From: Octopus vulgaris | Lineage: Eukaryota | DNA: 64,000 bases | NCBI GenBank assembly: GCA_951406725.2 | Contig: OX597842.1 | Coordinates: forward strand, 20,894,001 to 20,958,000 | Direction: 5' to 3' | Part shown: positions 2,107 through 47,228 of the stretch, piece after piece | Layout: each line of letters begins with the position of its first letter | Position numbering within the stretch: the first letter of the stretch is position 1 | Program-made: the position numbers and the translations under genes | Notes under the pieces: model-generated | Seen by the model: only the letters and a program-made list of their open reading frames with translations | Databases searched by the model: none | What the model was told of the DNA's origin: nothing

Positions 2107-2178
2107 AAAAAGTCTAAGCCGGTAAGATTCCTGAATGCTCCTTGCTCAATAGTCGAGATTCTGTTATTCTGTAGATAC
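2107..2178 (-). CDS. 72-bp single-LRR exon A: YLQNNRISTIEQGAFRNLTGLDF(L)
   Basis: Plus-strand acttac at 2101-2106 (= GTAAGT donor) and ct at 2179-2180 (= ttacAG acceptor). Exactly 72 nt, phase 2/2, typical-class LRR consensus. Confidence 0.93.
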
Positions 2179-2557
2179 CTGTAAGATAAAAGAGAACTCA
2201 TAAGAAATAACATAAAAGAGACCCGTTACAATATTTTTTACTATTATATCTGAGGGATAACAGGCAGGAAGATAAGAAAAGGAAGTCGAAGTTTTAGAAT
2301 TCGATGACGGATGTCACGATAATGATGTGTGAAGAACATGATTATAAAGGTGATGGTGAGTGATGACGAAGATTGATGATAATAACGATAACGCTGTTAA
2401 TTATACACTAGTTGGTATTGGTGACACTGTTGGTTGCTGAGCTGAGGATGCTGCGACTGTGGAGTATGATGATGATGTATCAGGTAAAATCTCATAAGAA
2501 GAGAAGGGGATGAGAGGAAGGAATGATGATGCAATATATAGCTATATGTATGGATAT

Positions 2558-2860
2558 GTATATATATATATATATATATATATATATATATATATATATA
2601 TATATATATATATATATATATATATATATATATATGCGTATAGTATATATGCGTATATATATATATATATATATATATATATATATTTAAAGGAAATTAT
2701 AATTGTTCCCTTTGAGGCTTTTGACGCCAACTACTTGATAAATTCTTATAAAGATTTTATGCTATATATATATATATATATATATATATATATATATATA
2801 TATATATATATATATATATATATATATATATATATATATATATATATATACATATGCATA
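2558..2860. repeat. (TA)n microsatellites (others at ~8527-8765, 11228-11340, 26205-26320, 38434-38530)
   Basis: Direct reading. Confidence 0.95.
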
Positions 2861-3999
2861 TATATATGTATGTATGTAAGTACATATGTATGTAACTACA
2901 TATTTATGTTTGCGTCTTTGTTATTAAATACGTATGTTTTCTTCGATTACAAGATGTTCAGTTTGAAATACAAGTATTATACATGTGTGTTTATGTATAA
3001 ATATGTGTATATATACTATGTATTGCATGTATGAGTGTATATATATTTCTGCCTTTAAGACTTTATTTATATATATTTCCAAGACCCGTTAATTTTTCAC
3101 GGAAGTAATTTTAAGCCTATGCAATAATTTTTGAAATCTTTATTTATAAAATCGAAAGTGTAGACTGCGTTGTGTCTGCATGGAGAGATAGTTGCTCGTC
3201 TGCTATTCATTGGAAAACAAACGAGACTGTAATAAGAAGATTACTTAATGAACTTTATATGGGCACTTAATATATTTTACCTACAATTTTACGGATATAA
3301 TACAGAATACTCATAAAATGAACAGTCACTCTTATTTTTCCATATTTTGCTGTAAACAATAAACAAAAATAAACATCTCATACATATGATACAACATTTC
3401 GTAAAATTGTAAAAATTTGCCACGTCAATAAGCGTGAAAACTTTACGGGATTTCATTTATGCGCATGCGTTATGAGAGAGAGACACGTTGTATAAAACTT
3501 ATTTCAATTGAAAAGCATGCACGCTTTTCACTATCCAATGCAACCACCACTACCTCCACCACTTCCACCAACACAATCGTCATCAACTCTCTTCCTGTCC
3601 CTCTCTCCTCTCCTTCGACTCTGTCTATCTCCCTTCCTTCTTTGCCTAAGTTTACCTTCACCATCAGAACATTACATCTCTGCTAAAGTTATCCTTTCAA
3701 CTCTCCTCTCCGTACAACTAACTTTTAACCACGTTACTAAATATTACGTTGCCCTTATCTTATATCGTGGACGAAATTCCCTCTCCCTTTTACCTTCTCA
3801 CTCTTTTTCTTTGTCCCTTTTTCTCTCTCTCTCTCTCTCTCTCTTTCTATCTATCTATCTATCTATCTCTATCTCTTCACCTTATCCTCTTTCCTGTTTC
3901 CTTTTCCATTCGCTTCAACTACTCACGCGCAATTACATTCCCTCTGCCACACGTCCTGGATGCTCTTCTCTCCCTATTTTCCTTCCTCCCTCATTTTAA

Positions 4000-4230
4000 A
4001 ATAATGATAATAATAATAATAATAATAATAATAATAATAATAATAATAATAATAATAATAATAATAATAATAATTGTGTACAGTGCTTAGGTGCACTACA
4101 ACTCATCTAAAGTGTATGTATAATCAGGTGTGGTTTCGGCGGATTTCGGAGAGCATGAGGGCCTTAAGGGATGCAGTGTCATGGCAGTCAACGACTGACG
4201 CAGGCAGTTTATTCCATGCTTCAGCAACTC
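4000..4230 (-). mobile_element. 3' tip of a CR1-group LINE with (TTA)n tail
   Basis: Minus frame RVAEAWNKLPASVV (CR1 ORF2 C-terminal motif), followed by a 3'UTR and a (TAA)n tract at 4000-4074. Confidence 0.7.
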
Positions 4231-5084
4231 TCCCCTTTCTTTCTCTCTCTTTCTCTCTAATTACATGAAAACGTTGCCGACACGCTAGGTAATGACATGA
4301 ACAATTTTTTGGTTAATTTTGCAAATTTACTCCTGTTCCAATGCAAAACTATAAATATCCTGATTTTGAAGAAGGATAAATTACATTACTTCTTGGACGT
4401 TCTAGGAAATGAATGTGGTCAACATTAATAAACTTTAATATTATAAATTCATTTGGATTCAAATTAACATTTATATTTATTTTTATGCAGTGTATATTCC
4501 ATGTGGTGTTGAAATAAGCATTATTAATGAATTAAACGTGATCAATTCTCAGTAAGGAAGAATATCACAAACACATTCATATAGAAAACGGGGATATATT
4601 AAAGTACACAAGTGAAGAATTTTTATATATGTGCATGAATCTGGGTATATATATATGTGTGTGAATGTATATACATAAGTATGTTTGTGTATATAGGTAT
4701 GTGTGTGAGTGTATGTGTGTTTGTGTGAACGTGTGTGTACATATATTTGTATATATTTATATTTGTGTGTATGTTTTTGTAAATTATGCAATCACGTATG
4801 TTTGCGTTTATATATGTTTCTAAGTTCCCTTTCAGTCGTTTTTTCGCCGCCATTCCCTGAAGGTGGGTCTAGTTGGCTCCCAAATAGGTGTTCACATCCT
4901 TCAGAAATGCTGACCGCATCCGATGGTCAGCCGCAATCGAAGCTATAATGGATATACACTCACAATTTAAACGCCCAAGTCTATAGACACAATGGACCGA
5001 TCGAACTTCTATGTTCGCCATTACCCATCATTGGCGCATTGTGTATATGTGTATAAAAATATATATATATATTTTGGATATACT

Positions 5085-44579: not shown

Positions 44580-45400
44580 TTAAGACAGTATTTATTTGTT
44601 AACGTTATTTCCATTGCTTTCTAGAACTTCATTCCATCTGTAAACAAGATAATAAATGCCACACTTGTAAAATTGTTTAAGTTTTGATGCGAAATATGAA
44701 TCCAACTCATTTTCAATCTCTTGATGTCAAACTGAGACCATTCAAATGGTTCTGTTGTCCACGAAACAAGGGATAAATTGAAGGAGTAAGGTCTGGAGAA
44801 TAGGGAATATAAAGCAATATTTCCCAACCAAGCTCTCCCAAGAGTATTAGCATTCAAACGATGAGATTAGTAGTGTCTGTTACCTAACTGCGTAATGGAC
44901 CTTTTCCACTATACCCCCAACATGATCTTCCTTTGATGAAGACCTTGTGTTGGTTGTTGAACAAATGTTCCTCCTCAACTGATCCACGATCGACGGCGTT
45001 TAACGTTATGGTTAAGGATCCAGCTCTCATCACCTGTAACAAGCCTTCCTAAAAATCGTTATTAAGGTGGCGTGAAAGCAACACGTTGTTGCGGATTCTC
45101 TGGAGACAGTTTGAAAGGGTCCCATTTCCTATCCATTGAACCCTTTCCGATCCTTTGATCTTTTTCAGTTCGTGCAGAAAATTTGTATGGGCTACGTTAA
45201 ACAGTTCTACAAGTTCTCTAGAATTAGCGGTTGGATCTTCTATGATAACAACTTTTTCAACTCTGCGGAATCAAATTGTTTTGAACTACACTATTTTGGC
45301 CTGTCTTTCAAACTCAATCCCCCACTTCTGAAGCGAGAAACCTATTCCCTGCAAATTCTTTCACACACCACATTCTCTCCATAAACTTCCTGAGGATACA
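44580..45400 (-). mobile_element. Degraded mariner transposase
   Basis: Minus frame ELGWEILLYIPYSPDLTPSIYPLFR at ~44760-44835 (YSPDL motif). Confidence 0.8.
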
Positions 45401-46326
45401 GGCAAAACACCAATTACAAACATCAACTTAGTGCAAACACAACCGACCAGATAATGTTCTGTGGGACAGTGAACAAAAATCATGCAGTGTTGCAGAGGTC
45501 AACTACCCTGCAGATGTAAATGTAAAATCAAAAGTCCAGGAAAAAGAGAAAATTTATTACAAATTAATGCGGTACTCTTTTACCTTTACTATGAATTTTC
45601 ATTTGTACCTATCATCATAAGTGCACTAGATTATATATCAACAAATTTACACTAAAACCTAGAAATACTCGGTTTCACGGAAGAAGAGAATATAGAACTA
45701 ACGCGGATTATCCAAATCCAGTATATATTCCCGATATGAAATTTTATGTGAATAGAAGCACACACTTGGGTGTATGCATCGAGAGTTCAAACAACACACA
45801 AACTCAACCACACATCTACAAACGCCGGGACTTCATTTCACTTAAAATGTCTTGTCACTTTGTTAGTAACCGGCTTGAAATCTCCCAAGAACTCTAACAT
45901 AAAGAAAAGTCATACGTGCATACATACATACATAACACGAAGCGACCAGTCGGATGTTCTGAACTGTAAGAGGAGGTCCTTATTACGGTCGTGGGATGCA
46001 TGTGTAAGCGGAATAGCAAAGAATATCGAAAACAGTGTGGGAGTAGGAAGATCACCTTTTCAGTCGGGATTTCGTGAGACAATTTTCTGTTTAATACAAC
46101 CCGGTACAACCGCTTAGACATGGAAATTAGAGATAAGGCAATATGTACTGAAAAACAGTCTACTTGACTTCATAGCTAGAAATATATCGACTTCCTTTAC
46201 TACACTGTAACATGGTGTTTAACGATGTGAAATCAACACCATAAGGTATTTACTTACAACTTAATAAATGAGAATTTAAATCATTGAATGTGGAAAATAT
46301 GTAAAAAAGAAATGTCCAATACTTAC

Positions 46327-46451
46327 AAATGTTTGACGTTCTGGCCAATATTTTGTGGAACAGAAGTCAAACTGAGATGTTTACAGTCTACTTCCATCAC
46401 CTCCATACAACCATTCACGAATACTGCAAACGTCTGAAACAGCATGAGACT
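46327..46451 (-). CDS. Signal-peptide end + LRR N-terminal cap exon: SLMLFQTFAVFVNGCMEVMEVDCKHLSLTSVPQNIGQNVKH(L)
   Basis: acttac donor at 46321-46326 in phase 2, matching the LRR exons. VDCxxxxLTSVPxNI is the LRRNT signature. Acceptor ttcttttAG at 46452-46453; closer alternative AGs exist. Confidence 0.85.
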
Positions 46452-47170
46452 CTAAAAGAAATCTCATGTACATTATCAACACAAAAGTCAACATAAAATG
46501 GTGATTTTGCCGGAACATATTTTCATGTGTAGATTAATCTGTAAAACAAGAAAATACAAAATATCAGACACTCTATTGTTATTTCATTCATTTTGCAAAT
46601 TCTACGAAGGACAAATATTGGTCCCTGTTTCATGCGATGAATTTATCCTTGATTTCGCTTACTTTCAAAGTCATAATTTAAAAATTAAAAAAAATGAATT
46701 TCGATCAGTGTGAAGAATATAGTTATAGATTATAGCATCCATGAGTGATAATATGAAATAAAAACTGAAGACCTATCACCTTAAAGCACACACACACACA
46801 CACACACACACATACACACACACACACACACACACACACACACAAACATACACACACACACACACACACACACACACTCACACTCGCGAACAGGCATGCC
46901 CGCGCGCACACTCGCAAATCATCTGTATATATAAAATCATTTGTCTCTCTCTTTGTTCCCAACGCATTCACAAACGGCTCAACAAAACCAAATCAAACTC
47001 TACATGATAATACTATCAGAACTCGTGAGTGTCAACATGTAAATTTTTCGCATTAAAACAATGCAACATTGGCACTGATTCCGTATTACGTCTCAAAACT
47101 CGAAGAATAAAAGTGAAAGAATAACATCTATATTGTAATGTGATATATTGTTTCACTTCCATATACTTAC

Positions 47171-47228
47171 TTTTAACTCTAACCACGACGACGACGACAT
47201 CACCTTTCGCATATGATTGTGTAATTGT
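47171..47228 (-). CDS. Candidate start-codon exon (ATG at 47212; MRKVMSSSSWLELK)
   Basis: AAA|GTAAGT donor (acttac at 47165-47170), ttcacAG acceptor at 47229-47230. 42 coding nt end in phase 0, in frame with the 125-nt LRRNT exon. Confidence 0.55.

Follow-up and report, generated by a model that had tools for sequence, protein, structure and literature searches.

The stretch of Octopus vulgaris DNA analysed here (64,000 nucleotides, hereafter the window) contains leucine-rich repeat (LRR) exons of one fixed length, and it raises two questions: to which gene do these exons belong, and what might a repeat array built in this way do?

Results

Cassette exons in the window

All six intact LRR exons reported in a first-pass annotation were re-found. 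Each is exactly 72 nt long, lies on the minus strand between AG and GT boundaries in phase 2/2, and encodes a single LRR. The LRR motif is interrupted by the splice joint, so that a plain motif regular expression misses these exons; a pattern scan returned six cassettes in the window, whereas 30 locally shuffled windows gave 0.1 on average (maximum 1). The Pfam LRR_8 match of cassette 1 covers 23 residues at E 7e-5, below the cut-off.

42148..42219, minus strand: LRR cassette 1 (F-type; 72 nt, phase 2/2); contigs of runs X1 and X3 cover it and show its joints
28871..28912 (5' limit approximate), minus strand: 5'-truncated pseudo-cassette (R-type), with two similar relics in paralogue g2
27061..27132, minus strand: LRR cassette 2 (E-type), with sister units at C29:20.844-20.861 Mb
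23236..23307, minus strand: LRR cassette 3 (F-type)
15933..16004, minus strand: LRR cassette 4 (F-type)
8077..8148, minus strand: LRR cassette 5 (A-type)
2107..2178, minus strand: LRR cassette 6 (A-type)

The pseudo-cassette ending at 28871 is a seventh cassette of the window, absent from the earlier annotation; it retains the donor and the 3' half, with the acceptor and 5' half replaced.

Gene identity and downstream domains

The C-terminus had been placed outside the window, and the next exon was expected about 5.97 kb left of the exon at 2178. A cassette indeed lies at 5934 nt, and the exons from LRRCT to 7TM follow leftwards.

Left of the window, about 101 kb, to G000:C29:20793205, minus strand: remainder of the gene beyond cassette 6
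Within it, in order: a broken cassette of 70 nt (cassette 7, at C29:20890244), then 12 intact ones, then a last LRR of 69 nt
After the last LRR, in order: LRRCT, LU, SEA-like, HRM-like, GAIN, GPS and 7TM exons

As modelled from sequence, the window holds the predicted 5' end of one octopus adhesion GPCR gene (g1) spanning 148 kb, with the layout signal, LRRNT, 18 intact cassettes, LRRCT, Ly6/uPAR (LU), SEA-like, HRM-like, GAIN/GPS and 7TM. In this exon model the body exons are all AG/GT-bounded, share one frame and are free of stops. The long modular ectodomain in frame with a 7TM recurs in the public models P0117, P0010 and P0026; P0117 corresponds to the g1 locus: it runs from cassette 8 through to the 7TM, and the entire window part of the gene is absent from it.

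The GPS at C29:20807162 scores 54 bits with PF01825 (cut-off 22.5; E 2.5e-14) and carries the H-L-T cleavage consensus in the g1 frame. Class B 7TM matches (Pfam 7tm_2, E 1e-8 and 3e-10) occur in the downstream exons, and GPS and 7tm_2 are likewise found in the Pfam scan of P0117 and relatives. In the predicted model of relative P0010, GAIN comprises helical and beta parts, residues 538-662 have pLDDT below 50, and the full-length model is of low confidence (pTM 0.32). The HRM-like match, at E 0.063, is below the cut-off.

The LU domain is called from its profile and cysteine pattern, since the list of structure-search matches (VIA) was filled by the SEA-like half. Its best profile match is LYPD1 (6zss; E 1.4e-4, whole domain covered), followed at lower rank by LYNX1, LYPD6, SLURP1 and CD59; it is about 80 residues long and ends in the three-finger pattern CC-x4-CN. 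Pfam Toxin_TOLIP gives weak matches in four of eight members, at best E 0.014. The SEA-like domain has a ferredoxin-type fold, with Z 7.7 (rmsd 2.8-2.9 over 86-91 aligned residues) to the SEA domains 2e7v and 7sa9 and Z 7.2 to Gpr126, although unrelated ferredoxin-like folds reach 9.2 (MscS); Pfam SEA appears at E 0.013 in one relative. For the LU-SEA stretch the ESM Atlas gave no usable match, which speaks neither for nor against these calls. A Foldseek search gave no match at E<=0.001.

Membership in the TLR, LGR/GRL101, ROCO and VLR families was rejected for g1 on the disagreement of C-terminal domains. The class A 7TM and LDLa of LGR/RXFP/GRL101 receptors are replaced by 7tm_2 with a GPS; neither LDLa nor 7tm_1 was matched by Pfam in the g1 exons, P0117 or the relatives scanned. 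The earlier remarks that no LDLa lies between signal and LRRNT, and that the layout is not that of a standard GRL101/RXFP, both agree with the exon model. No ROC-COR accompanies the GPS and 7tm_2 of P0117 and relatives. Unlike the incomplete germline gene and GPI stalk of VLRs, the g1 cassettes are AG/GT exons of a complete gene ending in a 7TM.

Splice joints and isoforms

The junction 46327>42219, predicted by the first-pass annotation, is present as an exact GT-AG joint in a contig of X1, a presumed RNA run, and cassette-to-cassette joints occur in X3; introns are mostly uncovered in both. Spliced reads across these exons, on which the gene reading had been staked, are thus found in X1 and X3, as single contigs of depth 3-11 from two samples of one study whose RNA status is guessed, at a likeness cut-off of 88% at which paralogues also map. 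X2 and X6 gave no exon joints, and their cover is mostly repeat-driven. Beyond cassette 1, the loose ends of the run contigs carry an F-type exon, unlike the E-type exon that comes next in g1, and the junction variants in X1 and X3 match none of g1, g2 and g3.

Apparent cassette skipping comes from database isoforms of relatives in two species rather than from the g1 locus. Isoforms lacking one 24-residue repeat account for 5 of 5 compared from one O. sinensis gene and 3 of 3 from one O. bimaculoides gene; at another locus, 13 database isoforms of 337-409 residues differ in steps of 24.

First coding exon and the state of this copy

46327..46538, minus strand: first coding exon (ATG 46518, signal peptide, LRRNT cap, donor 46327), from alignment with g2 and g3
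46394..46395, minus strand: an additional G that neither paralogue has, giving a +1 frameshift and a stop at 46383
47171..47228, minus strand: start exon of the first-pass annotation, about 96% kept in both paralogues, including the GT donor

The paralogue alignment displaces the start exon and LRRNT frame originally proposed: the exon begins at 46538 with its own ATG at 46518. More probably, the segment 47171..47228 is an exon of the 5' untranslated region that holds an upstream ATG (47212), or else it is no exon. Nor does the single open frame once drawn through these exons survive, as its AG at 46452-46453 exists only in g1 and it misframes the first half of the exon. Because that frame was wrong, a protein search with the earlier LRRNT returned three candidates, none at E<=1. 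The 3' half of the first coding exon matches Pfam LRRNT at E 0.069, below the cut-off.

From ATG to donor, g1 measures 192 nt against 191 nt in both g2 and g3, and its cassette 7 is broken, at 70 nt. No frameshift was met in those exons of g2, g3 and three further loci that were checked, and the two of g1 as assembled leave the odds about even between a recent null allele and assembly errors. For this copy, and not for the family, the 5' end in the window might be dead (a pseudogene or a detached relic), and whatever product is still made would then begin further downstream. To this we give slightly less than an even chance. It would account for the frameshifted first exon, the 70-nt cassette and the loss of two of the four LRRNT cysteines relative to g3, and the neighbouring introns show just 6 homopolymer indels of 1 nt in 22470 pairwise sites, a low number that argues against general assembly noise. 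However, all three indels fall in short homopolymer runs, the 18 cassettes and 20 downstream exons of this gene contain no stops, and the X1 contig spans the exact exon-2/cassette-1 joint without listed extra letters.

Duplicated units and homogenised introns

1..9503: two members of a 5.9-kb A-type exon+intron array (1-3595 vs 5977-9503, 95.9%)
11305..24330: a pair of F-type exon+intron units of 7.3 kb each, sharing 92.4% identity
38435..44085: F-type unit holding cassette 1, about 93% identical to the units at 11-24 kb

Duplicated units at offsets of 5976 and 7351 nt, 92-96% identical, hold five of the six cassettes, as had been noted; the units related to the sixth (27132) lie beyond the left edge of the window, where the A-type array also continues with four more full units and a short one. 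The claim of recent duplication stands as to duplication but fails as a full account, because near-identical introns flank very different exons. Across five tandem A units, introns differ by 0.24% (53 substitutions in 22470 pairwise sites) and exons by 17.5% (125 in 716), a figure that takes in the broken 70-nt cassette with one donor base; exon difference is about 70 times that of distal introns. Divergence declines with distance from the exon, from 4-8% within 50-100 nt to 2-3% within 900 nt and 0.1-0.3% beyond 1.2 kb. The A array is thus a clean case of divergent exon islands within near-identical introns, which suggests that the units are still being homogenised while their exons are kept distinct. 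A tree of the flanks of 17 F units resolved little: 3 of its 14 branches are well supported.

The intron identity could instead have been produced by assembly polishing with multi-mapping reads, in which case no gene conversion need have occurred; unique anchoring near exons could give the same falling gradient. We consider this unlikely, since that divergence peak is also a signature of selection under gene conversion described in part of PMC3924837, exons differ 5-8 times more than the adjoining intron, and private substitutions and indels persist in the units.

Cassette number

The close paralogues g1, g2 and g3 carry 18, 11 and 9 cassettes, contrary to the fixed LRR number expected of a conserved single-copy gene, and A-type cassettes occur only in g1 among the three. 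Stretches of three other loci hold 15, 14 and 20 cassettes; a fourth, 40 kb at C2:152.53-152.57 Mb, yielded no cassette exon. Relatives with a complete N-terminus have about 2 to 20 repeats, and the genome contains 65 LU-exon matches. That the solenoid is remodelled from exon+intron units, as first suggested, accords with this variable number; unequal crossing-over remains the presumed means.

Substitution pattern on the concave face

Codons for exposed concave residues flank each splice joint on both sides. In three cassette families, the first two codon positions of concave residues have 4.1, 1.4 and 1.9 changes per site by parsimony, where third positions in the rest of the exon have 0.78, 0.28 and 0.67, respectively; framework residues show 0.14, 0.21 and 0.0. 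Model M2a is preferred over M1a (p 1e-8, 9e-7 and 2e-3) in a rough home-made codon test with a fixed tree and 23 codons, which exchange between copies can inflate. Twelve of the 16 flagged sites lie on the concave face, whose codons have a rough omega of 5-15. Plain pairwise counts agree with the codon model in two of the three families; in the E family, concave pN (0.28) did not exceed pS (0.39).

The LRR arm might be a loosely constrained spacer with no recognition role, drifting by neutral unequal crossing-over in a repeat-rich genome, as the tolerance of symmetric exons for gain and loss, the broken and truncated cassettes, and relatives with about 2-4 repeats would allow. We regard this as highly improbable: concave codon positions 1-2 change at 3-5 times the third-position rate while the framework barely changes, and the A-array exons outpace distal introns about 70-fold.

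Discussion

Taken as a whole, the evidence is probably best explained by an octopus adhesion GPCR with cassette turnover and concave-face selection that senses an outside ligand. A symmetric exon of 72 nt for every LRR allows repeats to be gained or lost without a frameshift. Unequal crossing-over of exon+intron units would add and remove them, exchange between units would keep the introns alike, and selection would change and hold apart the exposed concave beta-sheet codons; the skipping of single cassettes, as in the database models, may add isoforms. The variable horseshoe would most likely bind a variable outside ligand, such as a microbe or parasite surface or a foreign or conspecific cell surface. 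In adhesion GPCRs, GPS cleavage leaves a tethered agonist through which a G protein is activated; binding to, or pull on, the g1 ectodomain may free this agonist and activate the G protein. We know of no adhesion GPCR noted for a hypervariable binding arm.

The first-pass annotation suspected an undescribed cephalopod receptor. The cephalopod origin is borne out, as the named relatives are Octopus proteins, but the family is not undescribed: A0A0L8FLR8, A0A0L8FKK5 and A0A0L8HDZ7 belong to class B group 3 in the supplement of PMC6408891 (Ritschard et al. 2019), an octopus-specific adhesion GPCR expansion according to the available part of that report. GPS and class B 7TM are common to both descriptions, and with 65 LU-exon matches the family counted here is the larger. 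The same portions note LRRs in 5 of 22 group 3 sequences, report no selected sites in a site test on the group, and make no mention of one-LRR cassette exons, repeat-number variation, LU/SEA-like domains or skipping. The family is not treated in the available parts of PMC13193013 and PMC13428168. Our literature search found no prior account of one LRR per cassette exon family-wide, the 18/11/9 cassette counts, the concave-codon substitutions, the intron/exon contrast or the 24-residue-short isoforms, nor any description of a cephalopod variable-recognition receptor. On sequence grounds, g1 is a candidate for such a receptor; the family offers a concrete, testable one for cephalopods, and a functional hypothesis for a published, unexplained expansion (skin, suckers, gill, arm nerve cord).

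A self-recognition code of the protocadherin/Dscam kind, neural or epithelial, with isoform choice by splicing and no foreign ligand, is doubtful but keeps some weight. The available part of PMC6408891 reports, for O. bimaculoides, group 3 expression in axial nerve cord, suckers and skin, which would suit such a code, as would the cassette-skipping isoforms; against it, that text gives gill and skin expression in C. minor, and the arm turns over so quickly, among very close paralogues as well as from sample to sample, that an arms race is the better fit. Broader still, and to be held only tentatively, is the possibility that octopus has a germline repertoire of at least 60 adhesion GPCRs in which cassette turnover, conversion-resistant hypervariable exons and cell-specific combinatorial skipping form a variable-recognition system wired directly to G proteins, serving immunity, allorecognition or chemotactile sensing, that has converged on ROCO, VLR and Dscam.

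By analogy, the candidate receptor would work like brown-algal ROCO exon shuffling, unlike somatically assembled VLRs. In brown-algal LRR-ROCO genes (PMC3341825, PMC11378527), each LRR has its own 72-nt exon, introns contain non-coding LRR relics, selection acts on the concave face, LRR exons are alternatively spliced and recent duplicates differ in repeat number. The ROCO parallel drawn earlier therefore holds for one-LRR 72-nt exons that vary in number among recent duplicates; intron relics and, by our rough model, concave-face selection are also common to both. LRR-ROCO proteins, however, are cytosolic ROC-COR GTPases whereas the octopus family are membrane adhesion GPCRs, no opposite-strand cassette was found in g1-g3, and the two cassette systems are of independent origin. 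Lamprey VLRs share with g1 24-residue LRR modules, a variable concave face and LRRNT and LRRCT caps. As mechanism the VLR comparison falls, because VLR assembly is a somatic process that draws on cassettes on either side of an incomplete gene (available part of PMC13428168) and the octopus cassettes are ordinary spliceosomal exons in a complete gene.

Among other adhesion GPCRs, g1 resembles ADGRG6 (GPR126) in its predicted stalk of SEA-like, HRM-like and GAIN domains (6v55 match). ADGRA2/3 (GPR124/125) also carry an LRR arm on an adhesion GPCR, with an Ig domain after the LRRCT where g1 has LU. These are single conserved genes; the octopus receptors are a multigene family of variable repeat number. 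Short molluscan forms, P0097 (Nucella lapillus), P0082 (Logan protein) and P0093 (Argonauta hians), have the order LRR-LU-SEA-like-GPS-7TM. As P0082 and P0097 have about four or five repeats, the long variable LRR arm looks like an octopod elaboration.

Many of the 72-nt exons are missing from public gene models, or the LRR arm appears there as a model separate from the 7TM and named, for example, slit, chaoptin or toll-like, which shows why the variable arm of this family was missed.

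A cassette-built adhesion GPCR gene

The window (G000:C29:20894001-20958000, in a genome of 2.8 Gb) holds six 72-nt LRR exons, or cassettes, on the minus strand. As the first-pass annotation read them, all have AG/GT borders, lie in phase 2/2 and encode one LRR each; 72-nt LRR-exon matches number 6 against a mean of 0.1 in 30 shuffles. Comparison of the window with itself recovers the duplicated exon units proposed earlier, at offsets of 5976 nt and 7351 nt, and adds a further F-type unit, the third, at 38.4-44.1 kb. Two degraded features accompany them:

ending at 28871: a seventh cassette, 5'-truncated
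31030-35582, plus strand: a broken non-LTR retrotransposon with endonuclease, RVT_1 and zf-RVT domains (Pfam)

The retrotransposon interrupts an incomplete F-type unit within the intron 3' of cassette 1, and its flanks (30769-31157 and 36441-37918) match F-type units in the self-comparison.

For gene extension we took in 120 kb to the left of the window. There the array continues with 1 broken and 12 intact cassettes and a 69-nt last LRR, followed by 19 more exons reaching C29:20793205. The C-terminus had been placed outside the window, and the exons to the left indeed match GPS (motif above the Pfam cut-off) and 7tm_2. With the broken cassette omitted, the gene (g1) reads in a single frame with canonical splice sites all the way from the 3' half of exon 2, the first coding exon, to the stop codon. 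LRRCT and GAIN are separated by an LU domain, for which LYPD1 is the best solved match (E 1.4e-4), then by a domain of ferredoxin-like type that is compatible with SEA, and an HRM-like stretch below the Pfam cut-off. The public protein model P0117 matches this locus and lacks the window part because its first cassette is number 8, which lies to the left of the window. A further GPS exon at C29:20739820 (minus strand), 53 kb past the end of g1 on the same strand, marks a neighbouring family member.

Splicing of the first cassette

Part of the 7TM exon is present in 15 of 24 listed sequencing runs, none recorded as RNA. Runs X1, X2, X3 and X6 were aligned to window 42100-46600 at 88% likeness. 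The first cassette is spliced: the predicted junction 46327>42219 occurs exactly, with CT..AC ends, in one X1 contig (depth 9.8, short side 39 nt). X1 and X3 contain one further exon-2/cassette joint apiece with different junction letters, and X3 a cassette-to-cassette joint at depth 3.2; in each of these runs coverage falls on exon bins and on few intron bins, with some depth in 6 and 8 of the 30 bins. No exon joint appears in X2 or X6 over 42100-46600. One of seven read-derived strings matched the close paralogue g2; the other six had no match in g1, g2 or the second paralogue g3, which points to other alleles or a close species. Among database isoforms of relatives, single 24-residue repeats are missing in 5/5 and 3/3 comparisons, and more loci show the same; these isoforms are automatic models.

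The first coding exon and its frameshift

A start exon had been proposed at 47171-47228. Exon 2 was corrected by alignment with g2 (C29:21.305 Mb, plus strand) and g3 (21.711 Mb, minus strand), which moves its start to 46538 and the ATG to 46518, after which it encodes a signal peptide and LRRNT. Relative to both paralogues, the window copy carries one extra base at 46394/5, and because of it the frame stops at 46383. The open frame first described escapes this base through an AG unique to the window copy among those compared, a bypass that is possible and unsupported. Cassette 7, left of the window, is 70 nt long, having lost one base in an A run and one in a T run. We found no frameshift in g2 (exon 2, 11 cassettes and 17 body exons, the three last exons lying outside the examined DNA), in g3 (exon 2, 9 cassettes and 20 body exons) or among the cassettes in three other loci (15, 14 and 20), and homopolymer indels are rare in nearby introns. 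The frameshifts of the window copy may represent a null allele or an assembly error.

Two of the four LRRNT cysteines are absent from window 46400-46425 and from exon 2 of g2; g3 keeps them. Window position 50053 bears a 97% match to the first 75 residues of P0074, the public model of g2, where they stand in place of the true signal peptide and are probably a spurious first exon.

Divergence of the concave face

Concave LRR positions follow the standard xxLxLxx rule, by which we set them after the sequences had been viewed. Three exon families entered the site test, with three R-type exons and the broken cassettes left out.

Parsimony changes per site in three cassette families
Positions: F (n=17); A (n=6); E (n=12)
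Concave, codon positions 1+2: 4.1; 1.4; 1.9
Third positions elsewhere in exon: 0.78; 0.28; 0.67
Framework: 0.14; 0.21; 0.0
Flanking intron: 0.56; 0.27; 0.55

Changes are in excess on the concave face. Under a rough model, M2a fits better than M1a in F, A and E (omega 5.7, 15 and 5.0), and 12 of the 16 flagged sites are concave-face positions, the residue after asparagine included. Pairwise counts agree with the site test for F and A, not for E.

Among five A units, 53 of 22470 pairwise sites show differences in distal introns, against 125 of 716 in exons, with a slope between the two; the last downstream bins (18-26%) fall outside the shared unit. A divergence peak in converting duplicates is a mark of selection according to PMC3924837; the rival reading is that polishing artefacts produced the exon/intron pattern.

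Family size and distribution

The window feature is real, and both the receptor class and its expansion were already known. The literature consulted does not describe the cassette architecture, the LU domain or the diversifying face, and a search outside subscription papers returned none that deals with cephalopod adhesion GPCRs carrying LRR cassette exons. Three relatives appear in group 3 of PMC6408891, whose supplements could still mention exon structure; the comparison literature comprised PMC3341825, PMC11378527, PMC13193013 and PMC13428168.

The relatives that carry a name, 13 among 495 candidates, are Octopus proteins called 'adhesion GPCR G6/G2-like'. The genome contains at least 65 LU-exon matches (68 candidates), 64 of them stop-free, and at least 63 GPS matches (124 candidates), both lower bounds. 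With the LRRCT-to-HRM stretch of the public model P0010 as query, 33 of 752 candidate proteins matched, 32 labelled Octopus and one unnamed. An LU-SEA protein searched against 1.84 billion representatives gave 30 matches, and the source was checked for 20 of them (17 Octopus, 1 Argonauta, 1 the snail Nucella, 1 unnamed); the receptor layout is therefore molluscan.

Cassette number varies, with four or five repeats in short forms and about 2 to 20 in those octopus members whose N-terminus is complete, as does cassette order, with seven A-type units in g1 and none in g2 or g3. Unequal crossing-over and conversion would be the underlying causes.

LU exons of equal or near-equal score occur on G000 C31 (many places) and at C1:216638168, C2:215233404, C2:215313581, C5:141927647 and C14:18299, several close to contig ends (C2, C14); they form a recently spread, perhaps subtelomeric subfamily. 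Six public models (P0014, P0018, P0046, P0080, P0081 and P0086), named slit-, chaoptin-, decorin- or toll-like, combine LRRs and LU and lack GPS or 7TM; this reflects split genes or else secreted decoys.

Proposed function

Adhesion GPCRs are known for GPS cleavage and tethered-agonist signalling. By analogy, this receptor would bind a variable outside ligand, and GPS cleavage would be followed by signalling through a tethered agonist. Of two possible roles, we hold the sensing of foreign surfaces in barrier tissues to be about twice as likely as a wiring code.

The O. bimaculoides member P0029 / P0071 has a C-terminal Death domain, a hint of innate-immune-type signalling; its listed expression share is 0.71 in skin and 0.17 in sucker.

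Other elements in the window

47907-48755, plus strand: a stop-free frame of 282 residues with no Pfam match at E<=0.01, the end of which resembles the GIY-YIG endonuclease of Penelope-like elements
60926-61835: a 76-nt unit repeated 12 times, the copies 97% alike
62379-62425: eight degenerate TTAGGG copies, an interstitial telomere-like tract
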